A DNA stretch of 32,000 bases from Cereibacter sphaeroides 2.4.1 (GCF_000012905.2 NC_007490.2:68828-100827); one strand, 5' to 3'. Positions 4,840 to 29,655 are shown, counted from the stretch's first letter. Numbers and translations: made by a program. The notes: generated by a model not told the origin, from the sequence alone.

Positions 4840-5176
4840 ACTCACTCTCACGGGCATGGGCAGCGTCGCCCTGACCCTGGCCATTGTGCTGGCTTCTCAA
4901 CCGCGGGGCCTGCCCACGGGCATCGTCACGCTCGATGCAACGGAGGCTGTCCTCAGCTTCATCCGGGCGGGCGGCAAGGAAATGCCCGACACGGACTATG
5001 AGGCGGCCGCGAAGATCTATCAGGCGGATCTCGAGGCGGCCATCGCGGACTTCGCGGCCGAACATTCCGTCATCGTGGTCAATTCGGCCACGGTGCTCGC
5101 GGGCGCCCCCGATATTACGCAGGAAGTCTCGCAAAAGGCGCTGGCGCGGTGGCGGGAAGCGAAGGGCACGCCATGA
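4817..5176 (+). CDS. trbI: TrbI-like F-type transfer protein (single-pass membrane)
   Basis: It has one TM segment (VALTLAIVLAS). The C-terminal 'VVNSATVLAGAPDITQEV' resembles the conserved end of type-F TrbI as I remember it. GTG 4817 lies 7 nt after GGAAGGA; ATG 4856 is an alternative start. The track start 4760 would overlap the previous gene. Confidence 0.55.
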   Translation: MDLGRAVELTLTGMGSVALTLAIVLASQPRGLPTGIVTLDATEAVLSFIRAGGKEMPDTDYEAAAKIYQADLEAAIADFAAEHSVIVVNSATVLAGAPDITQEVSQKALARWREAKGTP

Positions 5177-5703
5177 CCCTGCGCGATCTCGCCCGGCGCA
5201 GCTTCATGATCGGAGGCTCGCTCTTCGTCGTGGCGGGCTTCTGGCTCCTGCACAATGGCCGCCTCACCCTCAATGCCTCGCACTCTCTGCCCGAGCCCGC
5301 CTATCTCATGTGGGCTTGGCCGAAGGTGATCTGGAAGGGCGCCGTGATCTCGGCCGATCCGCCCGCAGCCTATGCGGCACGGTTCGACGGTCTGCTCTTC
5401 ACCAAGCGCGTCGTCGGTCTGCCGGGCGACCGGATCGAGCATCGAGACGGTGCGGTGTGCGTCGCAGGCGAGTGCTATCCGCTCGCGCTGAAGGATGGCG
5501 CACCCTTCGCGCCGGCGCTGGCCGAGGGCGTGATCCCGGACGGGCATTACGCCGCCTTCGGCAGCTCGGCCGACAGTCTCGACAGCCGCTACGCCACGGT
5601 CGGCCTCTTCGCGCGGGAGACAATCCGCGCCGTGGGCGTCGGCACCACCCTTGTCCCTCATTGGAAGGAGCTGAAGGCATGGGCGGACGCGCACGGATAC
5701 TGA
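5173..5703 (+). CDS. trhF: S26-family signal peptidase-like transfer protein (TrhF/TraF-peptidase type)
   Basis: It carries a Ser box NASHSLP, a Lys box KRVVGLPGD, SADSLDSRY and an N-terminal TM segment. It sits between traC and traW, as trhF does in SXT/R391/IncH systems. ATG 5173 forms ATGA with the preceding stop; GTG 5149 is an alternative start. Confidence 0.8.
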   Translation: MTLRDLARRSFMIGGSLFVVAGFWLLHNGRLTLNASHSLPEPAYLMWAWPKVIWKGAVISADPPAAYAARFDGLLFTKRVVGLPGDRIEHRDGAVCVAGECYPLALKDGAPFAPALAEGVIPDGHYAAFGSSADSLDSRYATVGLFARETIRAVGVGTTLVPHWKELKAWADAHGY

Positions 5704-6317
5704 CCGCGCTCGCCGTGGTTGCCTGCACGGCAGGGGCTGCGGCGGGCAAGGACTTCGGCGTCTATGGGAAGCTCTTTCCCATTGCCGAGCCGGATCTTCT
5801 TGAGCAGATTCTCGGCCGCCTCCGCACCATGGAGGCGAGCGGAGAGCTCGCCGAAATGGAGCGGGCGATGCAGGAGCGGACGCGCGCCTATGTGGAGCGG
5901 CCGGACACGGGCAGCGAGCTGCCTCCGGCCGAGGAATATCGCGCCTTCGAATTCGATCCCTCGATCACCCTGAATCAGGATCTCGCCGATCATCAGGGCC
6001 GCGTCTTTGCCCGGGCCGGGACGGTCGTCAATCCGCTCGCCTATTCCGCCTTCGCCAAACGCATCGTCGTGATCGACGGCGACGCGGAGGATCAGGTGCG
6101 CTTCGCCCTCGCAGAGGGGGATGAGCTCGACACCCTCATCGTGATCGCGAAGGGCTCGCCGCTGGCGCTCGGCCGCGCGCACGGCCGCCGCTTCTGGTTC
6201 GATCAGGACGCCGTGATGGTCAGCCGGTTCGGTCTCGAGCGACTGCCGAGCGTCATCAAACGGGCCGATCCCATCCTTCTGATCGAGGAAATTCCGACCG
6301 GGGAGGCGCAGCCATGA
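5679..6317 (+). CDS. traW: TraW (F-type pilus assembly protein)
   Basis: 212 aa from ATG 5679, which has GGAAGGAG 9 nt upstream. It has a signal peptide (ILTALAVVACTAGAAAG) and a TraW-like N-terminus FGVYGKLFPIAEPDLLEQI. The 477-aa track ORF 4884..6317 is an artefactual upstream extension. Confidence 0.85.
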   Translation: MGGRARILTALAVVACTAGAAAGKDFGVYGKLFPIAEPDLLEQILGRLRTMEASGELAEMERAMQERTRAYVERPDTGSELPPAEEYRAFEFDPSITLNQDLADHQGRVFARAGTVVNPLAYSAFAKRIVVIDGDAEDQVRFALAEGDELDTLIVIAKGSPLALGRAHGRRFWFDQDAVMVSRFGLERLPSVIKRADPILLIEEIPTGEAQP

Positions 6318-7300
6318 AGGGCCTGTTCTTCGCCATGGCGCTTGCCCTTGGCATCGGCGCGTCGGGCGCGAGCTTCGCGAAATGCAATGCGAAGTTCCTG
6401 AATCCGATCACTGAGGTCTGCTGGGACTGCATCTTCCCGATCTCGATCGGGTCGATCAAGGTCTTGAACAAGAGGCCCGACACCAAGAACCCGTCGCTGC
6501 CGGTCTGTCTCTGCCCGGGCACGCCGCCGCGTGTCGGCCTGGCCATCGGGCTCTGGGAGCCTGCCCGGCTGACCGACGTCGCGAACGAGGCCGGCTGCTT
6601 CGTGAACATGGGCTTCAAGGCCGATCTCGGTCTCTTCTCCATCGGCAAGAGCTCCGTCACCTCGAGCGACGGCGATCAGACCGGCAGCAAGTGGCAGGCG
6701 CACTACTATTACTATCCGCTGATCTCCTGGCTCGGGACGGTCGTGGATGGCCTCTGCCTCGAGACCACGGCCTTCGACATTGCCTATATCAGCGAGTTCG
6801 ATCCGCTCTGGCAGGACTCCGAGCTCAACACGATCCTGAACCCGGAAGCGGTCCTCTTCGCCAATCCCATCGCGCAGGCCGCCTGTGCGGCCGATTGCGT
6901 GCGCTCCTCGGCCGGCGGCCTGCCCATGGACAGCCTCTTCTGGTGCAACGGGTGTCAGGGCGGCATGTATCCCATGCAGGGCGACAGCAACGCGCACTAC
7001 GGCGGGATCCAGGCCAGCGAGACGGTCACGGCGAAAATGCTCGCGCGCCAGCACCGGCTCGGGCTGGCGCGCCGGACGTCCGGCAGTTCGGCGCTCTGCA
7101 CGACCGCCACCGCGCCGATCATCAAGAAGTCGCAATATCGCTTCCAGGTCACGCGGCCGCGGGCGGCCGTAAGCGGCCGCTATGCCTGCGGCCCGCTCGG
7201 CTCGAGCACGCAGCTGGTCGATTCCATGCGGCAGTTTCCATACAAAGGGGAGAGCTTCGGATGGCTCATCTGGCGCAAACGCAACTGCTGCGCGCTCTGA
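6314..7300 (+). CDS. traU: TraU (F-type pilus assembly/DNA transfer protein)
   Basis: 328 aa with a signal peptide. It has the characteristic Cys-containing N-terminal region (KCNAKFLNPITEVCWDCIFPISIG). It forms an ATGA overlap with traW. Confidence 0.9.
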   Translation: MKGLFFAMALALGIGASGASFAKCNAKFLNPITEVCWDCIFPISIGSIKVLNKRPDTKNPSLPVCLCPGTPPRVGLAIGLWEPARLTDVANEAGCFVNMGFKADLGLFSIGKSSVTSSDGDQTGSKWQAHYYYYPLISWLGTVVDGLCLETTAFDIAYISEFDPLWQDSELNTILNPEAVLFANPIAQAACAADCVRSSAGGLPMDSLFWCNGCQGGMYPMQGDSNAHYGGIQASETVTAKMLARQHRLGLARRTSGSSALCTTATAPIIKKSQYRFQVTRPRAAVSGRYACGPLGSSTQLVDSMRQFPYKGESFGWLIWRKRNCCAL

Positions 7301-8013
7301 TCGCGGCCGCCGTCCTGTCGGCAGGCACCGCCAGCGCCGGGGACGAGCTGCCCGATCCTGCCTTCGCGCCGGGAGCCACCGGTCGGATTGCGGCGCCGGT
7401 CGACCGGATCGTTCGCGATGCGGAACGCCGCGGCGAGGCGCTGGCCCGCGAGCTCACGATCCAGCCGCCGCGCGAGGGTGTAGAGATCGAGGATCTGGCC
7501 GGGATCCGCACCCGGGCGCTGAACGATCCGCGCGTGCGCGCCCTCCTCGGAGCCCCCGATGCGGAGGAGGTCGCGGCCGAAACCCGCGCCCGCTACGGCG
7601 AGGCGCGCGCGATCCTCTTTGCCTCCTTCTCGATGCCCGACACTTCGCTCCGGCAGATGATGCGGGAGGCAACCGCTCACGATCTGACGGTGGTGTTTCG
7701 GGGCTTCGTCAACAACAGCGTCTTCGACACGCGGGCGAGGCTCGAGGAAGTCTTTGCGGAGGACGAGACAGGCGAGGCCTTCGGGATCGACCCGACGCTC
7801 TTCCGGCGCTTCGACATTCGCTCGGTGCCGGCCCTCGTGGTGCTGGCCGAGGATCTCGGCGACTGCGCAACGCCCGCCTGCGAGGGCGATCCGCCGCCCC
7901 GGCATGATCGGGTGAGCGGCAACGTGCCCCTTGAGACCGCGCTGCGCGTGATCGCGGCCGGCAATGGCGAGGCCGCTTCGGTGGCCCGCTCGCTTCTGGA
8001 GCAAAAGCCATGA
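7261..8013 (+). CDS. trbC: TrbC (type-F pilin assembly protein)
   Basis: ATG 7261 lies 6 nt after GGGGAGAG. It has a signal peptide and the motif ILFASFSMPDTSLRQMM...LTVVFRGF, typical of F-type TrbC. It overlaps the traU end by 40 nt, and its stop forms ATGA with traN. Confidence 0.8.
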   Translation: MAHLAQTQLLRALIAAAVLSAGTASAGDELPDPAFAPGATGRIAAPVDRIVRDAERRGEALARELTIQPPREGVEIEDLAGIRTRALNDPRVRALLGAPDAEEVAAETRARYGEARAILFASFSMPDTSLRQMMREATAHDLTVVFRGFVNNSVFDTRARLEEVFAEDETGEAFGIDPTLFRRFDIRSVPALVVLAEDLGDCATPACEGDPPPRHDRVSGNVPLETALRVIAAGNGEAASVARSLLEQKP

Positions 8014-10118
8014 TCCGCGCTCTCCTGTCGATCCTTCTCCTTCTCGCGGCCGCGGCCGCGGGCGCAGCCTCGGCCGAGGACCTGAACCCGACGGCGCGGG
8101 CAAAGGCCGCGGGCAATGCCGCAAAGATCGGCAGCGGCTCGAGCGTCTTCACGACCGGCAAGATCGAGGAGACGGTGACGCCCTACGCCGGCACCGACCT
8201 GCCGGAGGCGTCGATCCCGGGCTCGAGCCTCGAAAGCCGCGGGCGCGAGGAGGCGATCTCGGGAGGCGAAAGCTCCAAGGTCTATCAGAAGATGCAAAGC
8301 AGCTCGCAGCTCCGGCCGACCTATGAGCTCGACGGCAGCTATGGCGGCCTCCAGGCTGCGGACGCTGCCATCAAGAACGCGGATTCCATCGCCGGGCAGT
8401 ATTTCTCGGGGTCCGAGACGGAGAACCCGGCCTGCAACTTCACCGACTTCAGCGTCATGGAGAGCTTCGTCCGCTACTGCGACTCCCACACGGCCATGAC
8501 CAGCAAGGATTGCACGATCACCCGCACGGTGGAGGTGGATCGGCGAGATTACTGGCAGTGCGACATCGCCAGAAGCGATCTGACCGTCACCTGCGTGCCG
8601 GACGCCACGGGAGAATGCCCGAAGGCTGACCTGCCTGAAGGTAACCCCAACAACCAGTGCACGTTCCTTCAGGAGCGCTGCGTGGAATGGAGCAGGAACG
8701 AGTGGACGGAGGGGCCATACAACGGCCGGGTCGACGGAAGGTATTACGGCTGGGAGAAGTCATCGGACGGAAGCCTCCGCCTTTTCTGGGACACATCCGG
8801 GCCACAGGAAAGGACGGCGAAGACAAACAGCACTCCGATCTCCATTGGAAACTGCGTCTACCACGCGGATTGGGGCAACAAGCAGAAGGTGGGCTCCATC
8901 TACCGCTATGCTGTCTATCGCATCTGCACGGGCGAAGGAGCTCAGTGCCTCAAGAAGGAGCGGGATTATCGCTGCATCAGCGGCAACCAGTGCAAGAGCC
9001 TCAAGGCCACGCCGGCCTGCAAGGTGGATCGCCAGAAGTGCATTACATCGGGGCCGAACGGATGCGAACTCCAACGCTTCGACTATTCCTGCTTCAATGA
9101 CCTGAAGAACCACAAGCCTGCACGGCTGGTAGAAACCAAGATCGAGCGGATCGAGGACAAGCTCACAAACTCCTGCAACCCGAGTCCGGCCGATCAGGGC
9201 TGCGCGGCACAGGACACGGTTTGCACCTCGGGACCGGAGATCCGCACCGTCATGGGCTTTCCGGTCTCGCGGGACTGCTGGACCTACAAGCAGAGCTTCC
9301 AGTGCCTCGACGGCAAATCTCCGAATGCCACCGACTGCGGACCGTTCCTGAAGGATCCGAGCTGCAAGAAGGTGAGCCAGACCTGCCTCACCTTCGCTGA
9401 AGCGGACGAGGAAGTGGGGCCCACGCCGAAGACCTGCCAGCATTGGGAATATGGCTACAAGTGCGGGGGCGGGATGAGCCTGCCCGACTCCTGCTCTGCC
9501 ACCAACGTGTGCGTGGGCGATCTCTGCGAGGGCATTCCAGATGAGGTGAACAAGGACTTCCCGATGGCGGCCTCCTGGCTGAGCGTGCTCGATGAGGCCG
9601 CCAAGGACAGCGAAAAGTCGCTCGACATGCAGGACGTGAAGCTCTTCGGCGGCGTCAATCGCAAGTGCAAGGTCGGCGCCCTCGGCTACATGAACTGCTG
9701 CAAGGACTCCGGCTGGGCCAACGGGATCCTCGACTCCTGCTCGGAAAGCGAGCTGGCGCTGATCGACCGCATCCAGGCGAAGGCCGCCGTCTATATCGGC
9801 ACCTATTGCTCGCGGAAGGTGCTCGGCGTCTGCGTCTCGAAGCGCCGGAGCTACTGCACCTTCAACAGCCAGCTCGCCATGGTCTTCCAGAAGGAGATCC
9901 ACCACCTCACCGCCACGAGCTGGGGGTCGGCCAAGAAGCCGAACTGCAACGGGATCAAGCTCGACGAGATCGAGACGATCGATTGGGACAAGATCGATCT
10001 CTCGGAAGCCTTCGGCGACATGATGAACGGGGCCACCGTCCCGGCCTCGAAGGACGTCACGAAATACATGCGCGACCGGTTCGATGCCATGGCAGGCGCG
10101 GCGGCGGGAGGCCAGTGA
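8010..10118 (+). CDS. traN: TraN (mating-pair stabilisation outer-membrane protein)
   Basis: 702 aa with a signal peptide and about 38 cysteines by my count. The C-terminal motif region (GALGYMNCCKDSGW...YCSRKVLGVCVSKRRSYCTFNS) is typical of TraN. Confidence 0.9.
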   Translation: MIRALLSILLLLAAAAAGAASAEDLNPTARAKAAGNAAKIGSGSSVFTTGKIEETVTPYAGTDLPEASIPGSSLESRGREEAISGGESSKVYQKMQSSSQLRPTYELDGSYGGLQAADAAIKNADSIAGQYFSGSETENPACNFTDFSVMESFVRYCDSHTAMTSKDCTITRTVEVDRRDYWQCDIARSDLTVTCVPDATGECPKADLPEGNPNNQCTFLQERCVEWSRNEWTEGPYNGRVDGRYYGWEKSSDGSLRLFWDTSGPQERTAKTNSTPISIGNCVYHADWGNKQKVGSIYRYAVYRICTGEGAQCLKKERDYRCISGNQCKSLKATPACKVDRQKCITSGPNGCELQRFDYSCFNDLKNHKPARLVETKIERIEDKLTNSCNPSPADQGCAAQDTVCTSGPEIRTVMGFPVSRDCWTYKQSFQCLDGKSPNATDCGPFLKDPSCKKVSQTCLTFAEADEEVGPTPKTCQHWEYGYKCGGGMSLPDSCSATNVCVGDLCEGIPDEVNKDFPMAASWLSVLDEAAKDSEKSLDMQDVKLFGGVNRKCKVGALGYMNCCKDSGWANGILDSCSESELALIDRIQAKAAVYIGTYCSRKVLGVCVSKRRSYCTFNSQLAMVFQKEIHHLTATSWGSAKKPNCNGIKLDEIETIDWDKIDLSEAFGDMMNGATVPASKDVTKYMRDRFDAMAGAAAGGQ

Positions 10119-18215: not shown

Positions 18216-18240
18216 AGTCACTCTGTGTTTGGGGTTAAAT

Positions 18241-21200
18241 ATGAGCGAAGGCTTGCCGTTAAAAGACGTACTTAATAACGTTAACGATGCTTTTGGAGAA
18301 ATGCTTGAGCGCGTAGAGGATCAAGCCCTTGAATCAAAGAGGAATTTTAAGGATTGGCTTGCAAAGGCTGGCGAGAATTTCGCGGCCGATATCGGAATTA
18401 CAGACCAGTTTGAAATCAACGGCGTCGTTCATGTCTATACGTCAGCGATGCACGCATACAAAATCCACAAGTCTTTTAGCTTCACCTTCGGCTGGATCAA
18501 TGAGGTGCATAATATATGGGCAACCGAGGCGGACGTCATCTTGGACACCCGGAAGGACATCTACAACAACGTAGTCGGCCGCCAGATTGCTGAGTTCGCC
18601 GTAGATAACGGGTTTGGTCGCGACGTCGTCGAAAGCCTTCTAAGAGAGGCTATCAAACAAGATCTGGTGATCCTTAACGAATTTCTTGATCCACGCACGA
18701 AGTATTACCAGTCGCCACCAGAAATCGACATGGTGGATTTGTTTAACAAAGCCTATGAGGGACGCGCCGTCGCATCCCTGAACGGCAGCGGAGGCGTCGA
18801 TGTACACTCTCTGGTCGATGGGGCGCCTGGGGACAACGTCATCGGGGATGGTTACGCTTACGACTACAGCCTTGAAATGGAGAACCCCTACAGCGCGACT
18901 TACGACTCTGATGGGAACATCATTTCGTCCCCGAGGCCCGAGCCGAGGCCCGACGATTTCGATCCGACGGGCTCAGGCAACCAGTCCTCGAAGCCACTGA
19001 TCATAGACATGGACGGTGACGGCATCGAAGTGTCGGCGGACAACACAGCAGACTTTGATTGGGATGCAGACGGCTACCTGGAGAACGGTAGCTGGGTTCA
19101 TCCGGACGATGCCTTCCTTGTGATCGACCTGAACGCAAATGGAAGCAGGGGTGCCGGAGACGGTAAAATTAATCAGGCGAAGGAGATTGCTTTCTCGCTC
19201 TGGACAGGTGGCAACCCCGACGACACCGATCTTCAGGCACTTGGCATTTTTGACCGTATCGCCAACGGCGGCAACGGGAACGGACGGATCGACGCGGGCG
19301 ATGCCATCTGGACTGAACTGAGAATATGGCAGGATAAGAACAGCGACGGCGTTGTGGATGGCGCGCTCGACACGCCTGGCGGAGAACTCCACACACTGTC
19401 CTCTCTGGGCTTCAGTCGCATCAACCTGAGCTATGGCTCTGGGAGCTTCGGTGACGATTCTGACGATCAGGTGACGACCGGGGCCGCCTTGTTGGGTCAA
19501 GCCTCATATGTGCGTAACGGTGTCACCACGCAAGGCGGCGTTGGTGACGTCGCTATCACCTTCAATCCGATTGGCTGGAAGAGGCTCCAGACCACTGAGG
19601 GCTATGATATCCGATTTGAGAACGGAGACAAACTCCGGTATGCCGTAGTCGCTTCAGGAGCGCCTGCGTCGGTTAACCTTGCATCTCTGGTTCTTGATGG
19701 CGCGGTCGGGGATGCGAGGGCCAATGCACTGGACGCATCCGGGCAGACCCGGCAGGTGCAGATCGCTGGTGGCGAGGGAGGAGACACGCTGCGGGGTGGT
19801 GCAAACCATGACATGTTGTCTGGAGACGGAGGTGCCGATGTCATCTACGGCAATGACGGGAATGACACACTGTTCATTGATGCTGCGGATCTCGCAAGTG
19901 GCATCGTAAACGGCGGACGCGGCCACGATACAGCCATCGTCTTAGGGTCGGAGGATGTCGTCCTTGACCTTCAGGCGCATTCGCTGGAGGCGGCAGCCGG
20001 CGGAGATGGCAACGACTCCATCTCGGGCGCGCAGCTTGATCTTAATCTCTACCTTCAAGGTGGGGCCGGAGATGACAGCGTATCCGGTGGGTCAGGTGAT
20101 GACACGCTGAGTGGTGATGCCGGCAACGACACGGTGCGAGGAGGGTATGGCGATGACACCGTTTTCGGGGCAAAGGGCAACGACAGCCTCCAAGGTCAGG
20201 CCGGCGATGATCTGCTTCTCGGTGGCGAGGGGGCCGATAGCCTGGAAGGAGGAGATGGCGATGACATAGGTTCCGGCGGTGCCGGAAACGACGTGATGAC
20301 CGGGAGCAGTGGAGACGATCACCTTTCAGGTGATGACGGCGCTGACACGCTTGATGGCGGGATGGGGGACGATTCCCTTGAAGGGAATGAGGGGAATGAC
20401 CGCCTCCTTTACTGGCGTGGCGACGATACGCTGATCGGAGGTCTAGGAAACGATACGTTCGTTCTATCAACCAGTGCAGAGTATGGCTCCGCCAGCCATT
20501 GGGGCTGGGTCATCATGCAGGGTGGCAAGGGGCAAGACACCCTGGAGCTGATTGGTTCGAGCGATAGCTACTCGATCCGGAAGGTCGATGACAACCAGTG
20601 GCAGATCTACCGCGCCACGTCGGCATCAGCCAAAGTCGTCATCGACGCTATGGACATTGAAGTGCTCCGCTTTGGAGATGGTTCAACAAGGATCCTGTCC
20701 ATCGACACATCCCTCGACACGTCTGCCGACTACGTTCGAAGCAACACCGATATGTGGGTTGGCGACAGCGCCGCCTCCATCCTCTTCGGCAGCTTTGTAG
20801 AGAATGGAACGTTGTTTGGCTGGATGGGAGAAGACACTCTGACGGGAATGATGTCGTCGGACTCGATCATTGGGGGAGAAGGTCGCGATACGGTCGATGG
20901 TGGCAACGGCAACGACAATATAAGCGGGTCAAGCGGCGGGGACTTACTCTACGGGAACGCCGATAAAGACACGATATCGGGTGGGTCCGGCTCTGACAGC
21001 CTGGTCGGGGGAACCGGAGCCGACTCCTTGGTCGGCGGCACCGGAGCAGACCTGCTGCTTGGAGAAGCCGGTATGGACACTCTGGTGGGTGGCGATGGGA
21101 GTGATAGTCTGGATGGCGGCGCCGACAGTGACGTCATTTACGGCAGCGGCGGATCTGATCTTGCATCCGGCGGCGACGGCGATGACTCCATCTATGGAGG

Positions 21201-22875
21201 AATCGGTTCGGACCGCATTTTCGGAGGCGGCGGAGACGACCTTCTGGAAGGCGACGAAGGATCGGACACGCTCTATGGGAATGACGGCAACGACACGTTA
21301 TTCGGCGCTGCAGGCTTCAACATGCTCTCGGGGGGAGACGGCAATGATAGCCTCATAGGGGGCGATGATGATGATCAACTCGTTGGCGGCAACGGAGCAG
21401 ACACACTCATCGGCGGGCAAGGCAGCGACATCATCATAGGCGGCGATGGCGGGGATCGTCTCGACGGTGGAGCGGGTGTTCTCGACGTGGTCAGCTACTA
21501 CGAGTCCGACAGCGCGGTTTTCATTGATCTGTTGAGCGGTAACACATCCGGCGGCGATGCATCCGGCGATATCTTGGCAGGCTTCGAGCACGCATCGGGT
21601 AGCAGCTACAACGACAGCCTGTGGGGCGACGACCAGAACAACGTTCTGATTGGCTTGCGAGGCGCTGATATCCTTCGGGGTCGTTCGGGCCACGATGATC
21701 TCTCGGGCGGCGACGGCGATGATAGCTTGGACGGGGGCGCCGGACTGGATCGACTTTGGGGAGACGCGGGAAACGACACGCTCTCTGGAGGCTCGGGAGC
21801 TGACACGCTGTCGGGTGGAACTGGAATCGACACCGCCTCCTATGCGACATCTGCGAGTGGACTGTGCGCGGACCTCTCCAACAGCGCAAAGAACACTGGC
21901 GACGCCGCGGATGACGTCTACGCAGGCATTGAAAATCTGATTGGATCAGATTTTTCGGACGAATTGGTGGGCAGTGGCATCGGCAACCGCCTGACAGGCG
22001 GCTCCGGACACGACTGGCTGGAAGGCCGCGCCGGCGCTGATACGCTGGACGGTGGAAGCGGCTGGGACAGAGCGGATTACTCTTTGTCGACAGCAGGTGT
22101 CTCAGCCGACCTACTTACGCCTACCTCCAACACCGGCGACGCGGCGGGTGATACCTACATTTCGATCGAAAGCCTCGGTGGATCGAATTTCGGCGACACT
22201 CTAGCGGGTGACAACAACGCGAACACCCTCCTCGGTCGGTCCGGCAACGACGTTCTTCGGGGGCGCGAAGGCGACGATCATCTGCTCGGGCATGAGGACA
22301 ACGACATACTCGATGGCGGCGCTGGGAGCGACACCCTCGACGGAGGGGAAGGCATTGATCGTGTTTCGTACGGTTCGGCCACGACGGCGGTCAAAGTGGA
22401 TCTCAGCGACCCAAGCATCAATACCGGCGATGCATTTGGCGACGTCTACATCTCGATCGAGAACCTCATGGGCTCAAACAACAACGACAACCTGCGCGGC
22501 AATGAAGGTGCAAACGCGATCTATGGAGCATCCGGAAACGATGTCATCTACGGTCGCGCCGGCGATGATACGGTGACCGGAGATGATGGAAATGACACTC
22601 TTTATGGGCAGGCAGGCAACGATCAACTCTACGGCGGATCCGGATCGGACGTCTTCGTCTTTGGTGCTGGCTACGCGCGTGACCGGATTGCTGATTTTGA
22701 GGACGATGTTGACATCATCCTGCTGACCGGAACAGGCATTTCGACGGTTGGTGCGGCAATGGCCCACGCTCGTCAGTCCGGCTCGGATGTCATCTTCGAC
22801 TTTGGTGGTGACGATGTTCTAACGGTGACGAACACGCTGCTGGGTCAGTTGTCTAACGACCTGCAGTTGGCCTGA
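18241..22875 (+). CDS. giant RTX (hemolysin-type calcium-binding repeat) protein, probable type I secretion substrate
   Basis: 1544 aa. An N-terminal ~250-aa non-repeat domain is followed by a Ca-binding '[13 protein letters not shown]...' module. After that come dozens of GGxGxDxUx nonapeptides in several blocks. There is no N-terminal signal peptide, and the acidic C-terminus is non-repeat ([15 protein letters not shown]...). Confidence 0.9.
19765..22660 (+). repeat. coding RTX nonapeptide repeat arrays (GGxGxDxUx), including four ~70-100-aa super-modules from ~21487
   Basis: Translation shows repeated G-G-x-G-x-D-x-L/I/V-x units. Four longer units share the pattern D.xSY...s...xDL......TGDAxGDxYxxIExLxGSxxxDxL. 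Confidence 0.8.
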
Positions 22876-23059: not shown

Positions 23060-23344
23060 TCAGGCAGCGAGGGTCTTCATGACCAACTCCGGAGCGGCCT
23101 GGATGACCCGAACATAGGCGACGGCAAAATCAGGTGCCGTGGCTCTCGCCTGCTCCCAATCCCTCAGAGTCCCGACAGGGACACGGAAACGCTCCGCGAA
23201 ATCGGCCTGCGAGAGCCCGAGGCCCGACCTCACCTTACGGATCAGCCGCGCCCGCTGACCGCGATCCATTGCCTCCGCCGTCACATCGAAATCTTCCGCG
23301 TCGGACGTGTCAGCAGGAAGAACGATAGGCTCTTTCTTCACCAT
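23060..23344 (-). CDS. brnA: BrnA-like antitoxin (HTH, XRE-like C-terminal part)
   Basis: 94 aa. 'LGLSQADFAERFRVPVGTLRDWEQARATAPDFAVAYVRVI' is the pattern of BrnA-type antitoxins paired with BrnT. AAGGAG lies 5 nt upstream of ATG 23344. It overlaps the brnT 3' end by 35 nt. Confidence 0.75.
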   Translation of the reverse strand: MVKKEPIVLPADTSDAEDFDVTAEAMDRGQRARLIRKVRSGLGLSQADFAERFRVPVGTLRDWEQARATAPDFAVAYVRVIQAAPELVMKTLAA

Positions 23345-23582
23345 TGTTGCTCCTTCTCACGGAAATATAGCGGGGCAGATCGCCCCGCCATGTGAACACG
23401 GCCGTGAAGAGCTTCCCCTCGACCTCACCTACAACCTTGAAGCGCTCTTCCTGATCTTCGGCACGGATCGAGGGGATAATGAGGTGACTATCGTCCTCGA
23501 AGATCCGATCGCCAAAGATCAGTGGCAACTTGTGCTTCTGCAGGTTCGCGGCGTCTTTCGCGGGATCGAATCTGCTCTCCAT
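23310..23582 (-). CDS. brnT: BrnT-family (DUF497) toxin
   Basis: 90 aa from ATG 23582. 'FDPAKDAANLQKHKL...ERFKVVGEVEGKLFTAVFTWRGDLPRYISVRRSNNGEERAY' matches the BrnT/DUF497 pattern (F.WD..K...N..KHG ... R.ISaR.a...E...Y). The track ORF start 23618 is probably too long. Confidence 0.8.
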   Translation of the reverse strand: MESRFDPAKDAANLQKHKLPLIFGDRIFEDDSHLIIPSIRAEDQEERFKVVGEVEGKLFTAVFTWRGDLPRYISVRRSNNGEERAYRSSC

Positions 23583-23593
23583 AACTACCAACA

Positions 23594-23608
23594 TACGGAA
23601 TTTCCGTA
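23594..23608. promoter_or_regulatory. perfect palindrome TACGGAA-T-TTCCGTA, 12 nt upstream of the brnT start; candidate BrnA operator
   Basis: Read directly from the sequence. The 7-bp arms surround one central base, and the site sits in the brnTA 5' region. Confidence 0.5.
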
Positions 23609-23658
23609 CTCGTTGCAACGCCGGTCATGGCATTGCCGCGCCCCATGATTGGACCCAG

Positions 23659-24235: not shown

Positions 24236-24420
24236 TCAGAAGGCGTAGCGCAGGCCGGCGAGCAGGTCGAAGGTCTCGAGCCTGCCGTTGAAGTTGTCCC
24301 CGCCTGGGCCGTCAAACCTACCGACTCGGTCTGGAACCAGCGTCCCTCGGCGAATAGGGTGGCATTGGGGCTCAGTTTGTAGTCAAGGCCGCCGATCAAC
24401 TGGTGAGGCGCAGATGGCGC
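24236..24420 (-). pseudogene. 3' remnant of an outer-membrane beta-barrel (OmpA-like/porin-family) gene, frameshifted and 5'-truncated
   Basis: One minus frame reads ...LIGGLDYKLSPNATLFAEGRWFQTESVG. A second frame continues FDGPGGDNFNGRLETFDLLAGLRYAF-stop (stop at 24236-24238). The terminal aromatic and alternating pattern is typical of OM beta-barrels. The frame switch is near 24310-24320, and no N-terminal part is present. Confidence 0.5.
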
Positions 24421-24448
24421 GGCTGCAGCCCTTCTCCCCAACCCGTCG

Positions 24449-25234
24449 TCATCGCCAGGCGCGCCGGGTGTCGGTTTCCTCAAGCATTCGTCCGTCATGG
24501 AAGAGCAGGAGCGTCAGTGTCTCGTTGCGACCGATACGGACGGTCTGCTCCTTGACCTCGAAATGGTCCGCTCCCGTCCGGTCGAACCAGGCATCTGCAC
24601 CCATCTTCTTGGGGGAAAGCGTTTCCTGAGCGAAACCGAACTGGATGTCGAACGCGAAGCTCTCGTGATCCAGTTCCCGCTGTGGATACCACCGCTCTGG
24701 AATGCTTTTCGACCGCGTGAACCAGCGGCGTCCGTTCCGCCCGTGGCAGACGAGCATCGAAGGTTCGAGGTCCGCCTCGACGAGCCGGATGGCCGCAGCG
24801 GTGAAGCTGACGTCGAAGGCCTCAGCGAAGGACCGGATGGTCGAGACGTCAAGCTTCTTCGTCTGTCGGACGAGGGGGCGGAACAGGTAGTTCGGCATCA
24901 GGAGGTCGGCCGCGTATCCATCGGCCGTCCGCTCTCGGGATGTTCCAGTTCGCGGATGGTAGTCCTCGACGCGGCACATCAGGCACTGCCCGCGATGATG
25001 GTGCCAGTGGCCGAGCTCGTGGGCGATCGAGAACCGCTGGCGAGCGGCAGGGCTGCGGCTGTTGACGGTGATGATCGCCTTGTCGTTCGCGCCGACGATG
25101 CGTGCCTCGCAGCCGTCAAGGGCGAGGTAACGCACCTTCGCCCCTGCATCGAACGCGATGGCCTCAAGGTCGATCTCACTGGGGTCTGTCACGCCCAGGT
25201 CCTGGAGCACGGCTTCGGCCGGGGTGAGACGCAT
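24449..25234 (-). CDS. ImmA/IrrE-family zinc metallopeptidase (CapP-like) with an extra C-terminal domain
   Basis: 261 aa. The HEXXH motif is AHELGH (nt 25007-25021), followed by 'ADGYAADLLMP', typical of Peptidase_M78/ImmA. About 120 aa of C-terminal extension follow. The start shares one base with the upstream stop (TGATG). Confidence 0.85.
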   Translation of the reverse strand: MRLTPAEAVLQDLGVTDPSEIDLEAIAFDAGAKVRYLALDGCEARIVGANDKAIITVNSRSPAARQRFSIAHELGHWHHHRGQCLMCRVEDYHPRTGTSRERTADGYAADLLMPNYLFRPLVRQTKKLDVSTIRSFAEAFDVSFTAAAIRLVEADLEPSMLVCHGRNGRRWFTRSKSIPERWYPQRELDHESFAFDIQFGFAQETLSPKKMGADAWFDRTGADHFEVKEQTVRIGRNETLTLLLFHDGRMLEETDTRRAWR

Positions 25235-25662
25235 CAGGACAGGCCGTCCTGGGGATCGATTACCCCGAGCTCCATCAGATCCTGGAGCTGGCTCAGCACG
25301 TCGGCATCGGAAAGCTCGCTTTCGTTGCGGGCCGCCATCGTCAAGCCGGCCGGGTTCCTGTCGATCGCCTGCCGCAGCCGCGCGCGTGCAGATGCCATGT
25401 CGATGACTGCAGGCGGGTGCGGGGTTTCCTGACGACGTGCAGCGGAAACACCTGCCTTGGCGGCCGCCATCCGGGTCTTTCTGGACGCAATACGGACCTG
25501 TTCGAACCGGGCCCGCATGCGGGAAGCGAATGCCTCCGGATCGCGACCATCTTCACGTGCTTCCGCCAGGATTTCCTCGTCCGACAGGCTCATGAGATCT
25601 TCCACGAATGCGTCTGCCAAGCGGTCGAGAGGGCGCTTTCGAAATGATTTTTCACTTGTCAT
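25234..25662 (-). CDS. hypothetical helical acidic protein (142 aa) between the sigma-like gene and the peptidase; candidate protease substrate or anti-sigma
   Basis: ATG 25662 forms ATGA with the stop of the sigma-like gene; ATG 25671 is an alternative start. I recognise no HTH, TM segment or zinc motif. GC3 bias is good. Confidence 0.6.
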   Translation of the reverse strand: MTSEKSFRKRPLDRLADAFVEDLMSLSDEEILAEAREDGRDPEAFASRMRARFEQVRIASRKTRMAAAKAGVSAARRQETPHPPAVIDMASARARLRQAIDRNPAGLTMAARNESELSDADVLSQLQDLMELGVIDPQDGLS

Positions 25663-26249
25663 GATTTCCACCCCGCGGGGAACTTCTTGTCGATGCGTCG
25701 GCGCATCAGGCGTCTCTTCGTGTTGTAGGCGGTGACATCGAGTCCCGTGAGCTCGCGGAGTTCCTCGGCCGTCAGGCCCTCCATGATTCCGACGAGGATG
25801 TCCTGGGCGACGGGATCATCGTCGAAGAGGGTGAAGAAAGCCGCCCGGATGCGCGCATCCTCCTCGTCCCGGATCAGTATCGCTTCCGCGTCCGGGCCCA
25901 GATCCTGGATCTCAAGGACATCTCCGTCTTCGCCGACAGCTTCCGATGCGTCTGCCGGATGCCGAAGGGCATCCTTTTCGCGCTCGCCGCTCGCCAGGGA
26001 GCGGATCACGCCGATCAGAAACCTCATGATCGGCACGTCAGCCGGACAGGACCGCCGATCGTCAAGGGCGCGTACCAGTGCCTCTTGTACCAAGTCACCA
26101 GTATCCACGGAGGAACCGCGCCCGAAGTAACGAGCCGCGCTCTCCAGCCTGGCGTAGTCCGCCACTGTGAAGCCGCAGATCGCAGCCTCGATCTCTTCCC
26201 TCGTCCTGATCGTGGTCTTCTGCCCCAAACTCACACCCCACCTGCTCAC
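25659..26249 (-). CDS. sigma-70-family (ECF-sized) RNA polymerase sigma factor-like protein
   Basis: 196 aa with a GTG start. It has a region-2-like 'DTGDLVQEALVRAL' and a region-4 HTH-like 'LTAEELRELTGLDVTAYNTKRRLMRRRIDK'. The two are joined by an acidic linker. Confidence 0.65.
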   Translation of the reverse strand: MSRWGVSLGQKTTIRTREEIEAAICGFTVADYARLESAARYFGRGSSVDTGDLVQEALVRALDDRRSCPADVPIMRFLIGVIRSLASGEREKDALRHPADASEAVGEDGDVLEIQDLGPDAEAILIRDEEDARIRAAFFTLFDDDPVAQDILVGIMEGLTAEELRELTGLDVTAYNTKRRLMRRRIDKKFPAGWKS

Positions 26250-26380
26250 TCATCTATGCGGCCGAACCTGCTCCTCTCGGACATCGCGCCCGCATGTCCG
26301 AGGCAGCCCCTCTCGCCCGCATATGGAGATGAGGCGGCAAGGCCGGAAGGTCTGCCCCCGACAACTATAGGAGATCAAAA

Positions 26381-26659
26381 GTGATCTACGCGATCAACTA
26401 CGACCTGCACCGGCCCGGGCAGAACTACGACGGGCTCCACGACGCCATCAAGAACCTCGGTGCCTGGTGGTACTACCTCGGTTCGACCTGGCTCGTTGAC
26501 ACCAACTTGAACGCCGGCGGCATCTGGGACCGCCTCGCACCCCACGTCGACAAGAACGACAGCGTCCTCATCATCGGCGTGACCCGGAACCATGCCGGCT
26601 GGCTGCCCCAGGCGGCGTGGGACTGGATCAACGCCCGCAGCAACAGGATGGCGGCGTGA
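26381..26659 (+). CDS. small conserved-looking hypothetical protein (92 aa), first gene on the CBASS strand
   Basis: GTG 26381 lies 7 nt after AGGAG (26369-26373). It is Trp-rich (IYAINYDLHRPGQNYDGLHDAIKNLGAWWYYLGSTWLVDT...SVLIIGVTRN...WDWI). The alternating predicted pattern suggests a small alpha/beta (ferredoxin/Cas2-like) fold, which is inference only. Confidence 0.7.
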   Translation: MIYAINYDLHRPGQNYDGLHDAIKNLGAWWYYLGSTWLVDTNLNAGGIWDRLAPHVDKNDSVLIIGVTRNHAGWLPQAAWDWINARSNRMAA

Positions 26660-26663
26660 GTAA

Positions 26664-26708
26664 ACACAATATATGGTTTGAATAATCATTAGCTACACCA
26701 TATATGGT
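26664..26708 (+). promoter_or_regulatory. AT-rich candidate promoter/operator of the CD-NTase operon
   Basis: There are two 14-bp direct repeats, ACACAATATATGGT (26664-26677) and ACACCATATATGGT (26695-26708). The second contains the perfect 12-bp palindrome ACCATATATGGT. TTGAAT (26678-26683), 17 bp, then TATATG (26701-26706) resembles a sigma-70 promoter whose -10 lies inside the palindrome. Confidence 0.4.
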
Positions 26709-26763
26709 AAAGCGCGGTCGCCTGAGGGGAGGCGGGACGACCGAAAGACAGAGAGGAAGACAT

Positions 26764-28005
26764 ATGCCGCTCGATAACACATCTCCCGCACTTGACGCCC
26801 TCCTCCTCGGCACGGTCCTGGAGCTTGAGCTCAGCGACCGGGATCGGCGGGTTCTGAGGAAGCGCTACGACCTGATCAAGCCGCACCTGGAGCGGCAGGG
26901 GAGCGCGCTGGCGCCCTATCTGAATAACGCTCTGGTCTACGCTCAGGGATCCCGGGCCATCGGCGCCACGATCGTTCATGGTGCCGACGATGACCGGTTC
27001 GATCTTGACGGCATCCTGGAGTTTCCCACGCCCATGGGCTGGGGTCCTGCCAAGGTTCTCGACGAGCTCTACACCAGCCTGGAGGGGTTTCCGGACTCGA
27101 CAGGCATCCAGCGCTGCACGCGGTGCATCCAGCTCAAGTTCGCCTTCATGCATCTCGATCTGACGCCGATGGATCCGGCCAGCGCCCCGCGCGTCGACCG
27201 GGTCGGAGACATCTACCACAGTCCGGACAAGGGCGAGGACCTGCGGGTCGCAGCCAATCCCTACGGTTTCGCATCCTGGTTCAGGGGCAGGGTCGCGCAG
27301 CCGACGGTCATCTTCCGCGACCAGGTCGCGAAGGCCCGGACGGCGCTCGGCATCCGTGACCGGATCGCGCTCGGCTCCATGATCATCAAGGCTGACACAC
27401 AGGTTGACGACTTGCCGGACGAGGTCGATCCCATCCGCGACGCGCCGCAGGTCATCGCGCTCAAGCTGATGAAGCGGTACCTGAACTTGCGATACGCCAA
27501 TCGCAAGGAACGTCGGCCGCCCTCGGTCTATCTTTCGAAGCTGGCTGCCATGGTTCCCGTCAATTCCACGGGCCTCTGCTCGCAGCTCGAGGATTATGCC
27601 AACCTCGTCGAGCAGCGGATGGCGTACTGCCTCGCCACCGGCTCGCGGCCAGAAGAGCGAAACCCGGCCCTCTGGGAGGAGAACTTCAACGATCGCTGGC
27701 CGAAGCAGGTGTGCGAGATGCAGCTCCTCCAGAACGACATGCGGCATCTTCGGCACGAGTTGGCAAAGGCCCGTATTTCGGAGGCGCCGGAGATCCGGCG
27801 GATCTTCTCGAGACTGTTCGGAGAGAGGGCGACGGTCGCGTCGTTCAAGGCCTACACCGACCAGCTTTCCTCTACAGCCGGGAAGACCCGGGTGGAGCAG
27901 GGCAGGGGCTACATTGCTGCCCCGGCGATTTTGCCCGCAGCGGCGGCTTTGAAGGTCTCCGCAGCACCTGCTCACCACTTCCATTGCGGGGTGCAGGACA
28001 AATGA
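26764..28005 (+). CDS. CD-NTase (cGAS/DncV-like nucleotidyltransferase, SMODS-type) of a CBASS system
   Basis: 413 aa from ATG 26764 (AGGA 6 nt upstream). The nucleotidyltransferase signature is QGSRAIGAT (26944-) ... FDLDG (Asp codons 27001, 27007) ... MHLDLTP (Asp 27157). It has a long Ala/Pro-rich C-terminal tail. It forms an ATGA overlap with the next gene. Confidence 0.85.
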   Translation: MPLDNTSPALDALLLGTVLELELSDRDRRVLRKRYDLIKPHLERQGSALAPYLNNALVYAQGSRAIGATIVHGADDDRFDLDGILEFPTPMGWGPAKVLDELYTSLEGFPDSTGIQRCTRCIQLKFAFMHLDLTPMDPASAPRVDRVGDIYHSPDKGEDLRVAANPYGFASWFRGRVAQPTVIFRDQVAKARTALGIRDRIALGSMIIKADTQVDDLPDEVDPIRDAPQVIALKLMKRYLNLRYANRKERRPPSVYLSKLAAMVPVNSTGLCSQLEDYANLVEQRMAYCLATGSRPEERNPALWEENFNDRWPKQVCEMQLLQNDMRHLRHELAKARISEAPEIRRIFSRLFGERATVASFKAYTDQLSSTAGKTRVEQGRGYIAAPAILPAAAALKVSAAPAHHFHCGVQDK

Positions 28006-28484
28006 AACCGCGGCGGCTGTCGCTGGAAGCGCAGATCCGCAGGATGCGGGCAAAATGGCCGGAGTTCAGGCCGGGCGTCATCGGATCTACGAGCATCAGC
28101 TGGATGGGACCACTGCGCGGCTTCCAGATGGATTACACAGTTCTTGTGCGCTGGTCAGTTGGTCAGACGCCCAAGGCCATCGTCGTGAGCCCGCAGTTGC
28201 GACCGCGTGTCGGCACGGCCTTCATCGACATTCCCCATCTGATCCTCGACGTGGAGAACCCCGAGGACTCCCCGCTCTGCCTCTTCGATCCGGAGGCCGG
28301 CGAATGGAACGACACGCTTTCCGTGGCGGACACCATTCTGCCCTGGGCATCGGAATGGCTCCACAACTACGAGCTCTGGCACCTGGATGGCGTGTGGCGA
28401 GGACCGAACGCACCGGGGCCGATCTCGATCGGTGACGCCCTGAGACTGAGAAAGGAGTGCCTGCATGGCGAAAAGACGGACTGA
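28002..28484 (+). CDS. E2 (UBC-fold)-only CBASS accessory protein (type II-short Cap2-like)
   Basis: 160 aa. 'IPHLILDVENPEDSPLCLFDPEAGEWNDTLSVADTILPWASEWL' parallels the UBC core 'HPN...G.ICLDIL...W.P.l.i..vl..i..ll'. The candidate catalytic residue is Cys93 (nt 28278-28280). It is coupled to both neighbours. Confidence 0.7.
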   Translation: MKPRRLSLEAQIRRMRAKWPEFRPGVIGSTSISWMGPLRGFQMDYTVLVRWSVGQTPKAIVVSPQLRPRVGTAFIDIPHLILDVENPEDSPLCLFDPEAGEWNDTLSVADTILPWASEWLHNYELWHLDGVWRGPNAPGPISIGDALRLRKECLHGEKTD

Positions 28485-29655
28485 CGCAAGACAGGTAACG
28501 AAAACGCTCCTGTGGGCGCGGGCGGCGGGCCGCTGCCAGTTCCGCAATTGCGGCAAGCGGCTGGATGTCGATCGGGTTACGGCCAACATGCAACGGAACA
28601 GCGCCTACGTAGCGCATATCGTGGCGGCCGACCCCGGCGGCGCCAGGGGTGACGACGCTCTCTCGCCGCTGCTGGCAGACAACATCAACAACCTGATGCT
28701 GGTCTGCGACACCCATCATCGGGAGGTAGACGACAAGGCCGAGGAGCACATCTACACCGTCGAGATCCTGACCGCGATGAAGCGGGAGCAGGAGGCGCGA
28801 GTCGACCGGCTGTTGTCTCCGAGAACGACAAAGGCGGCCCACGTCCTGCAGGTCAGCTCCCCCATCGGGCCAAACGAGACGGCGATCGTCTTCGATGACG
28901 CGTTCGAGGCGGTGGCTGACACCAATACCCTCGGCGACACCAGGCCGACCGAGATCAAGATCCGCGGCATGCGCCACAAGGACAGCGATCCGAACTACTA
29001 CGACGTTGAACTCAGGCGCCTGCGGGAGGGGTACGACCAGGACATCCGGTGGCGCTTCGAGAAAGGGGACATGGAGCATCTGGCGGTCTTCGCCTTGGCG
29101 CCGATCCCGATCCTCATCGAACTGGGCCGGCTGATCTCCGACATCTCGAGCGCCACCGTCTACCAGGCGCATCGGGAGCCGCGGCAACATTGGAGCTGGT
29201 GGGACGATGGTGCCGAGATCGATTTTTCAGTCGTGCGTTCGACCAAGAACTCGGAGGCCAAGAGGGTTGCCTTGAAACTGGAAGTGACCTCGGAGATCGT
29301 CGACGAACGCATCATGGCGGCCGTGGGCGAGGGGGTTCCGATCTGGTCGATCCGCTCCTCGAGCTTCGGAACGAGCGTCATGCGCAACAAGACCGATCTC
29401 GGAAAATTCCGGCAGCTTGCAGGGCAGGTTCTCGACGATATCAAGAACGCCTACGGGTCGGATGTCGAGGTCCTGGTGTTTCCTGCCATTCCGAACTCCG
29501 GCGCTGTCGAGTTCGGTCGGGTCTGGCAACCGAAGGCACATCCCTCTCTGTCTGTCTTTGACGAGGCCGGGGCGCAGGGCTTTAAGCGCCGTCTCTCCAT
29601 CCTGAGGGAAGGCGCCAGCCCGCACGCCGTAGCCGTGCAGGTAGATGCGGAGTAG
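28465..29655 (+). CDS. cap5: Cap5-type CBASS effector: N-terminal HNH endonuclease fused to a C-terminal SAVED sensor domain
   Basis: 396 aa. The HNH elements are CQFRNCG...YVAHIVAADPGGARGDD...NINNLMLVCDTHHREVD. About 270 aa of C-terminal alpha/beta domain follow, in the position and size of SAVED. AAAGGAG lies 7 nt upstream of ATG 28465. Confidence 0.85.
   Translation: MAKRRTDARQVTKTLLWARAAGRCQFRNCGKRLDVDRVTANMQRNSAYVAHIVAADPGGARGDDALSPLLADNINNLMLVCDTHHREVDDKAEEHIYTVEILTAMKREQEARVDRLLSPRTTKAAHVLQVSSPIGPNETAIVFDDAFEAVADTNTLGDTRPTEIKIRGMRHKDSDPNYYDVELRRLREGYDQDIRWRFEKGDMEHLAVFALAPIPILIELGRLISDISSATVYQAHREPRQHWSWWDDGAEIDFSVVRSTKNSEAKRVALKLEVTSEIVDERIMAAVGEGVPIWSIRSSSFGTSVMRNKTDLGKFRQLAGQVLDDIKNAYGSDVEVLVFPAIPNSGAVEFGRVWQPKAHPSLSVFDEAGAQGFKRRLSILREGASPHAVAVQVDAE

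Follow-up and report, generated by a model that had tools for sequence, protein, structure and literature searches.

How abortive-infection systems such as CBASS (cyclic oligonucleotide-based antiphage signalling system) are silenced and switched on is an active question. The characterised controllers, CapW/BrxR, CapH-CapP and CapK-CapS, are all derepression-based; a later paper from the Lau group presents these three as DNA-damage-responsive controller families and names no sigma-based one. In CapH-CapP, CapH is an XRE-type helix-turn-helix (HTH) repressor with a C-terminal dimerisation domain, and the protease CapP cuts it at F82|R83 (Lau et al., 2022, bioRxiv 10.1101/2022.04.27.489752; EMBO J). 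The same study recorded a sigma association for 24 CBASS systems. One of these is the subject here: three minus-strand genes at 24449-26249 of a 32,000-nucleotide stretch of Cereibacter sphaeroides 2.4.1 (NC_007490.2:68828-100827; the whole stretch is called the window below), which encode a sigma-like protein (gene 1), a small helical protein (gene 2) and CapP (gene 3) and run divergently from a plus-strand type II-short CBASS operon. This triad is best described as a widespread but uncharacterised sigma-based variant of the CapH-CapP controller.

The locus appears in Table S1 of Lau et al. (2022) as Rhodobacter sphaeroides 2.4.1, “Sigma-70 present”, with capP ...17, capH ...18 and CD-NTase ...21; the entry is taken to be this locus because the numbering fits the order capP, gene 2, gene 1, p92 (a 92-aa gene) and CD-NTase exactly. 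The table also marks its cysteine switch “Yes”. Gene 2 is labelled capH there, and neither gene 2 nor the mechanism is analysed. An earlier note on this DNA, made from the sequence alone, was aware of no described sigma-based version of CapH-CapP: as far as co-occurrence goes this has to be corrected, while for gene 2 and the mechanism it holds. The co-occurrence of a sigma factor with CapP, at this locus included, is thus already catalogued, and the new evidence is the distinctness of gene 2 from CapH and a pair of conserved promoter-like motifs. Our literature search found no M78/IrrE peptidase acting on an anti-sigma factor and no follow-up on the “Sigma-70 present” systems.

The triad shares much with CapH-CapP: a protease of the same CapP family (full-length match and cysteine switch), a position upstream of and divergent from the defence operon to be controlled, a cargo range that takes in CBASS and ubiquitin-like 6E/Bub systems, and occasional fusions of the small partner to CapP (CapH-CapP fusions are reported in Lau et al., 2022). 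It differs in that gene 2 lacks an HTH and any detectable similarity to canonical CapH, an ECF-like (extracytoplasmic function) sigma gene stands upstream of gene 2, paired bipartite promoter-like motifs replace the CapH operator, and the defence genes are predicted to be activated, with positive feedback, by a sigma factor that is set free, rather than derepressed. ImmR/ImmA (ICEBs1, phage phi105) and DdrO/IrrE (Deinococcus) are similar in that an M78 metallopeptidase senses DNA damage and cuts an adjacently encoded regulator, as is proposed for the triad; their substrate, unlike gene 2, is an XRE-type HTH repressor, and no sigma factor takes part.

The other half of the comparison lies with ECF sigma/anti-sigma pairs (sigma-E/RseA, SigW/RsiW, RpoE/ChrR). 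Their sigma factor has about 190 aa arranged as sigma-2, linker and sigma-4, as is predicted for gene 1; as in the triad, its small downstream partner is co-transcribed and translationally coupled, and one promoter motif precedes both its own operon and a small target regulon; release through regulated proteolysis, which is what is proposed for the triad, is common among them. Unlike these pairs, the triad has a very divergent sigma-like protein (below Pfam and NCBIfam cut-offs), a soluble partner with no ZAS motif and no resemblance to a known anti-sigma domain, and a proposed protease that is a cytoplasmic M78 (ImmA/IrrE/CapP) enzyme. A related case is DdvS-DdvA of Myxococcus xanthus (PMC11506125), where a CBASS-containing defence island (CBASS-CRISPR) is governed by an ECF sigma factor together with its anti-sigma factor, and proteolysis of the latter is proposed to free the former. 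DdvA, unlike gene 2, is a transmembrane protein; it has a three-helix bundle that binds zinc and, in the periplasm, a TPR-CHAT domain, and RseP-type intramembrane proteolysis is proposed for it; gene 2 is small, has no cysteine and no hydrophobic segment of membrane-spanning length, and is paired with CapP.

The genes of the triad

The three genes are translationally coupled, as the earlier note described. Gene 1 (25659-26234, minus strand, 191 aa) and gene 2 (25234-25662, minus, 142 aa from an ATG) overlap in ATGA (reverse complement of 25659-25662), and gene 2 and capP (24449-25234, minus, 261 aa) overlap in TGATG (reverse complement of 25232-25236). RefSeq carries the first as a hypothetical protein, the second as a 119-aa hypothetical protein and the third as an ImmA/IrrE family metallo-endopeptidase. 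The reading frame of gene 1 is open as far as a first GTG at 26249, which would give 196 aa (25659-26249). The true start is most likely the GTG at 26234 because the RefSeq call and the N-termini of homologues agree on it and AGGTGG precedes it; it is also favoured because GTG 26249 is only 4 nt from a conserved -10-like box. The 131-bp gap to p92 that the earlier note gave is correct from GTG 26249 and becomes 146 bp from the likelier start. For gene 2, the RefSeq version (25234-25593) drops about 23 N-terminal residues, including the family-invariant R14 and D22, and the 142-aa form that starts at the ATGA overlap is the better call.

This arrangement recurs widely. Forty loci from species-representative genomes were gathered through the gene 1 family, making 41 with the window (genes were called by a greedy procedure weighted by GC3, the GC content at third codon positions, and then clustered; operon boundaries are approximate). 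The order sigma-like gene, gene 2, CapP is kept in 37 of the 40 loci from other species, and in one more locus gene 2 and CapP form a single fused gene. Gene 2 lies directly 3′ of gene 1, with overlapping stop and start, in 41/41 loci, and CapP lies 3′ of gene 2 in 38/41. Such an arrangement is not down to chance.

Taken together, the comparisons indicate that gene 1 is a highly divergent ECF-type (group 4) protein of the sigma-70 family, a reading that draws on sequence profiles and a predicted structure. On its own, gene 1 matches Pfam Sigma70_r2 with E 9e-4 (19.4 bits, cut-off 24), in a stretch that spans DLVQEALVRAL, and matches NCBIfam TIGR02937 (sigma70-ECF) with E 2.4e-5, below the cut-off. 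Through a word-indexed search 47 relatives were collected, each about 190 aa long; a few bear names such as “sigma-24” or “ECF subfamily” at source. When 42 aligned members were scanned against Pfam, 33 matched Sigma70_r2 (best E 1.1e-5) and none matched any unrelated family; the same scan gave no region-4 match for gene 1 or its relatives. Region 4 is seen with hhalign: the C-terminal 70 residues of the family align with residues 116-183 of E. coli sigma-E (probability 69%, E 4e-5), and the family's HTH “LTAEELRELTGLDVTAYNTKRRLMRRRI” sits over sigma-E “LSYEEIAAIMDCPVGTVRSRIFRAREAI”. In the AlphaFold2 model of gene 1 (mean predicted local distance difference test, pLDDT, 84) a disordered stretch (residues 100-118) links two helical domains. 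Every one of its best 27 Foldseek matches in the PDB is a sigma factor, with ECF types making up nearly the whole set; the matches run over the full length and include SigH, SigE, SigL, RpoE-NepR, SigW-RsiW, AlgU-MucA and CnrH-CnrY. The sigma-like character that the earlier note read from the size of the protein and two short segments is supported by these profile and structure checks.

Gene 3 matches the PADLOC capP model with E 3.2e-67 (residues 5-245 against model positions 8-241 of 242) and Pfam Peptidase_M78 with E 6e-20; its HEXXH motif is H72-E73-L-G-H76. Against the structure of Thauera CapP (PDB 7T5T; E 3e-8), Cys87 aligns with the cysteine-switch residue Cys113. By these matches gene 3 is a complete, full-length CapP. 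The earlier note was right about the ImmA/IrrE HEXXH peptidase, and what it took for an extra C-terminal domain of about 120 aa is the standard CapP region, because the capP model matches from end to end; a linker and GAF domain after the peptidase are normal for CapP and IrrE (Lau et al., 2022).

Gene 2 is the least familiar of the three. Helices are predicted throughout the protein (pI 5.3, no cysteine). Its N-terminal helical region is acidic, residues 11-40 carrying a net charge of about -7, and so is its C-terminus. Between them lies a conserved basic segment (residues 59-105); a long, basic, Ala-rich helix (59-80) is followed by a variable linker, and the conserved C-terminal region reads “ARxRL ... 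LTxAARK ... LSDxDV ... DLxELG”. A full HMMER scan of 1.84 billion representatives puts the family at 1,856 clusters (50% identity) at E <= 1e-3 and 833 at E <= 1e-10, nearly all of 135-150 aa. There is no match and no HTH in Pfam or NCBIfam, and the family profile finds nothing significant among PDB sequences; nor does the predicted structure have a significant neighbour in the PDB by Foldseek (best E 1.5). Neither “anti-sigma” nor “HTH” can therefore be claimed as a label from structure, and the earlier description of the protein as helical and acidic with no recognisable HTH stands.

Filing gene 2 as CapH was considered and rejected. A canonical CapH, from a Rhizobium rhizogenes CBASS plasmid (locus L046), matches HTH_3 with E 1.7e-13, and the gene 2 family profile shows no relation to it (hhalign probability 0.1%). 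Gene 2 thus fails CapH's defining feature, the XRE-type HTH, which is why the triad should not simply be annotated “CapH-CapP”; the PADLOC capH model, to which gene 2 has a weak match, is suspected of having been built partly from sigma-associated “capH” entries.

What gene 2 might do is suggested by where it lies. A cognate anti-sigma factor is canonically encoded right after an autoregulated ECF sigma gene and in coupling with it, and gene 2 holds that place relative to gene 1. There are also three independent fusions of gene 2 to the N-terminus of CapP (locus L009 and the database proteins P0305 and P0335). Position, translational coupling and these fusions make gene 2 a candidate cytoplasmic anti-sigma factor and CapP substrate, and an inhibitor is expected since a positively autoregulated sigma factor needs one and gene 2 is the only candidate. 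One can speculate that CapP would cut at the invariant Ala92-Arg93 or Ala111-Arg112, by analogy with the sites in CapH (F82|R83) and DdrO (L106|R107).

Paired promoter-like motifs and the proposed switch

The region between gene 1 and p92 offers a separate line of evidence. When 23 regions between gene 1 and a p92 homologue were aligned, only four boxes besides the Shine-Dalgarno sequences were conserved, in the order CCTATGCGG ... CGGACAT ... ATGTCCG ... CCGCATAGG. They resolve into a single asymmetric, two-part motif, ATGTCCG-N16/17-CGCATAGG, that occurs twice in opposite orientation: the first copy is directed toward the triad, the second toward the divergent operon. In the window, the predicted promoter facing the triad (26253-26284, minus strand) has a -35-like ATGTCCG (reverse complement of 26278-26284), a 17-nt spacer and a -10-like CGCATAGA (reverse complement of 26253-26260); the one facing p92 and CBASS (26294-26325, plus strand) has ATGTCCG at 26294-26300, again a 17-nt spacer, and CGCATATG at 26318-26325. 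Across the 41 loci the triad-facing copy is found in 37, the outward copy in 34 and both in 32. The spacer within a copy is 16 or 17 nt in every case and all 15 box positions are near-invariant, as against sigma proteins that are only 40-50% identical. The gap between the two copies varies more: 7-10 nt in 26 of the 32 loci with both, 13-27 nt in the other 6.

The motif is strongly concentrated where a promoter would be expected. In a scan that allowed one and two mismatches in the two boxes, there were 72 matches in the 460-nt upstream regions (about 19 kb in total) and 23 in the remaining ~646 kb or so; Markov-shuffled sequence gave 12-30 matches per whole set, so that the 23 background matches are at chance level. 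The motif also lies next to the triad in Polaromonas (Betaproteobacteria) and Phyllobacterium, and a variant, ATGTCCA-N17-CGTCTAA, is found in the AT-rich gammaproteobacterium Pseudoalteromonas. A scan of 24300-26900 for consensus sigma-70 promoters and terminators found nothing relevant in the gene 1-p92 and p92-CD-NTase gaps. The pair fits what an autoregulated ECF sigma factor leaves in the DNA, that is, a promoter for its own operon and a target promoter. A sigma-type promoter is the preferred interpretation because the motif is asymmetric, has two boxes at fixed spacing, lies where a promoter would be expected relative to each start codon and is found ahead of the regulator's own operon as well. 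As comparative evidence, the motif pair lends independent support to the positive, sigma-based control that the earlier note had proposed.

These observations can be assembled into a switch that would work much as CapH-CapP does, with a sigma factor rather than a repressor as its output and gene 2 as the anti-sigma factor, a reading that can be held with moderate confidence. Gene 1 would bind RNA polymerase core and recognise both divergent promoters; the triad-facing one would drive gene 1, gene 2 and capP, and the outward one p92 and, by read-through, the CBASS genes. Gene 2 would bind gene 1 and hold it inactive, as gene position, translational coupling and the gene 2-CapP fusions suggest. 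Phage infection or DNA damage would give rise to single-stranded DNA, the putative signal, which would activate CapP (by analogy with the CapP of Lau et al., 2022; the cysteine-switch loop is present here as well). CapP would then cut gene 2 (the same three features point to this), and the freed sigma factor would transcribe from both promoters, inducing defence and feeding back positively on the triad. Since fresh anti-sigma factor and CapP would be made at the same time, the switch could reset.

Several observations weigh against this scheme. Every sequence-level sigma match of gene 1 falls below curated cut-offs, the E-values of its Foldseek matches are weak (2e-3 to 0.8, with probabilities up to 1.0), and a search of PDB sequences with the family profile returned no sigma factor, only noise (SIZ1, centrin), which is why the sigma reading rests on the family-wide Pfam counts, hhalign and the fold search. 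The all-helical AlphaFold2 model of gene 2 is of moderate confidence (pLDDT 76). Pfam, PDB sequence and fold searches gave gene 2 no similarity to a known anti-sigma domain (class I ASD/ZAS, NepR or DdvA-type) and no zinc motif (HxxxCxxC or CHCC), and gene 2 does have a match to the PADLOC capH model, weak as it is (E 1.4e-4). In 26/32 loci the two -35-like boxes, 7-10 nt apart, are arranged as an inverted repeat, which a dimeric DNA-binding protein could also use. Finally, three loci (L022, L025 and L031) carry gene 1 and gene 2 with neither CapP nor the outward motif; these modules may have decayed, or may represent a variant that responds to another input.

Some of these points would be accommodated if gene 2 were a functional equivalent of CapH after all: a DNA-binding repressor without an HTH that occupies the inverted repeat CGGACAT-N8-10-ATGTCCG until CapP cleaves it, with the sigma-like protein as an accessory that gives promoter specificity or is constitutively active. 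The listing of gene 2 as capH by Lau et al. (2022) and the PADLOC match speak for this, as do the conserved basic middle of the protein (residues 59-105), the inverted repeat itself and weak, non-significant Foldseek matches of gene 2 to small three-helix DNA-binding domains. Yet no HTH is found by Pfam, NCBIfam or fold search, and the hhalign comparison with canonical CapH shows no relation. The DNA also argues for promoters: in the 6/32 loci where the inner spacer stretches to 13-27 nt the -35/-10 spacing stays at 16-17 nt, the outer boxes are equally conserved (which a palindromic operator leaves unexplained), and the 23-region alignment holds no further conserved operator. Repression by gene 2 is accordingly judged unlikely. 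The same features of the motif bear on the idea that gene 1 is a sigma-derived DNA-binding activator or repressor that acts alone on the repeats, modulated by gene 2 and CapP. Its weak sigma homology, below all curated cut-offs, would be in keeping with such a role, and the Rhodobacterales offer a precedent in GafA, a sigma-like regulator that acts otherwise than a conventional sigma factor and is described as controlling gene-transfer-agent expression via the omega subunit of RNA polymerase (PMC9638019). A bipartite, asymmetric motif with 16-17 nt spacing at promoter distance from both starts is nevertheless a -35/-10 signature and not that of a dimeric regulator, and this alternative looks rather improbable.

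A further possibility, raised in the earlier note, is that the triad controls transfer or maintenance of the conjugative plasmid and that its adjacency to CBASS is coincidental. The locus is on plasmid pDE (NZ_CP030276.1; the CapP encoded there is 100% identical), a 153-kb conjugative replicon (MOBF, MPF_F), with traG a few kb away, and ImmR/ImmA pairs do control mobile elements (Lau et al., 2022). But the outward promoter faces defence operons, and never tra genes, in more than 40 loci from other taxa, and in a scan of 150 kb of pDE the two copies in the gene 1-p92 gap were the only ones with <=1 mismatch. A two-mismatch copy, ATGTCCG-N16-TGCATGGG, lies within traB/virB10 (1217-1247, plus strand) and again in the duplicate of that gene on pDE; it is regarded as non-functional because its frequency equals chance expectation. 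No homologue of gene 1 or gene 2 turned up in 50,697 phage records, which leaves a prophage-switch origin of the pair without support as well. Regulation of tra genes by the triad was rejected after the pDE motif scan, and control of conjugation is now highly improbable.

Neighbouring defence operons, p92 and the plasmid

The plus-strand operon beside the triad comprises a CD-NTase (cyclase; 26764-28005 from the RefSeq start, 413 aa; PADLOC Cyclase PDLC00813 E 3e-201, Pfam SMODS), an E2-like protein (28002-28484; PADLOC E2 E 1e-44) that marks it as type II-short, and an effector that fuses an HNH endonuclease to a SAVED sensor domain (28465-29655; PADLOC Endonuclease effector, SAVED_HNH, E 4e-131; Pfam SAVED E 1.5e-44), all on the plus strand. 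In RefSeq these are a nucleotidyltransferase, a hypothetical protein and a SAVED domain protein. Table S1 of Lau et al. (2022) gives the effector of this locus as “phospholipase”, whereas the effector here is the HNH-SAVED endonuclease: either the table is mislabelled or it was based on a different annotation.

The earlier note had named a neighbourhood survey as a check on whether the triad keeps company with defence or with transfer genes, and the answer is defence, of diverse kinds. Type II-short CBASS is the divergent operon in the window, in L001 and L003 and in Pseudoalteromonas (L045); type II CBASS (phospholipase, CD-NTase, E1-E2) in L010, L017, L019 and L020; and type III CBASS (TRIP13, CD-NTase, SAVED nuclease) in L037. 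Elsewhere it is Bil (BilC, BilD; L028), multiubiquitin with Prok-E2_E and E1 (6E/Bub; L013, L024, L026, L033, L035, L036 and L040), multiubiquitin with the E1-like ThiF only (Pontibacter, L047), NsnA/NsnB (L012) or PDC-S06 (L029). In the three loci that have no CapP and only the triad-facing motif, the partner is a PCMT-like methyltransferase with a weak match to PADLOC mad2. No transfer genes are found as the divergent partner among the more than 40 loci from other taxa. On this showing the triad appears to be a portable controller of the adjacent defence operon and not a conjugation regulator.

The first gene 3′ of the outward motif is p92 (26381-26659, plus strand; hypothetical in RefSeq). 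A p92 homologue is the divergent neighbour of the triad in 24/41 loci, ahead of differing defence operons (it is present in the window, L001-L020, L024, L030, L041, L042, L051 and L052), and at 61-80% its identity across loci is far above that of the regulators beside it. The protein matches phrog_1090, of unknown function, with E 4.5e-25 and has no match in Pfam. Outside triad loci it is seen with a BrxR/WYL regulator as neighbour in Acuticoccus, as gp05 of Enterococcus phage phiFL1A, where it belongs to the int/ImmA/XRE lysogeny module, and adjacent to the portal gene in a P2-like Klebsiella phage, one record there labelling it Cas2. Overall p92 gives the impression of a small mobile gene carried along behind stress-responsive promoters. 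In L001-L008, L011, L012, L014 and L015 a protein of about 85 aa that starts “MRVQGAVIREQGQTFAVVVVKPHVVQN” is encoded <=~15 nt 3′ of the p92 homologue; it matches phrog_23950 (unknown function; E 3e-25) and is absent from the window. This gene and p92 appear to belong together as a unit of two genes.

Between p92 and the CD-NTase lies an AT-rich gap (26660-26763, plus strand) in which a direct repeat, ATATATGGT, can be read at 26669-26677 and 26700-26708. In L010, L017, L019 and L020 the stretch that separates p92 from the phospholipase gene has similar “TATATA...TATATGG” elements, some with TTGACA upstream. The gap is possibly a second, weak basal sigma-70-like promoter or an operator of the CBASS cassette.

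A BrnT-family toxin and an HTH antitoxin (RefSeq; 23060-23618, minus strand) lie just downstream of capP, and pDE has a second BrnT copy elsewhere. Between the tra region and the defence locus is a gene for a 1548-aa “calcium-binding protein” (18229-22875, plus strand; RTX-like, with many GGxGxD-type repeats). On pDE there are two copies of the tra block, whose protein accessions are the same (TraN, TraF, TraH, TraG; TraL to TraC), at record positions 135-8067 and 43460-51869 and also at 33385-45568 and from 142528 onwards, and three repC genes are annotated. The doubled tra block and the three repC genes suggest a cointegrate, or else a plasmid in which a large segment has been duplicated.

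What a sigma-based controller would mean

In its broadest form the claim could go either way: a widespread module (at least 1,800 clusters of gene 2 at 50% identity) whose sigma factor would be governed by CapP through cleavage of a new kind of soluble anti-sigma factor, and which would serve as a DNA-damage-triggered, positively autoregulated ON switch for defence islands, with the promoter ATGTCCG-N17-CGCATAGG and the Cas2-like p92 as its first output. The predicted motif is short and near-invariant, which makes reporter design, regulon prediction and in vitro transcription directly testable, and C. sphaeroides 2.4.1 is genetically tractable. The entries called “CapH” in sigma-containing systems represent a different family, which matters for annotation pipelines such as PADLOC. 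If the reading is right, CapP-type proteases would be the input to a sigma/anti-sigma pair. M78 peptidases would then be connected with sigma/anti-sigma control for the first time, and their substrates would extend beyond HTH repressors. Defence operons would then have, beside the controllers that act by derepression, an activation-based one with built-in positive feedback, and such a circuit would be expected to show a threshold and bistable commitment dynamics.

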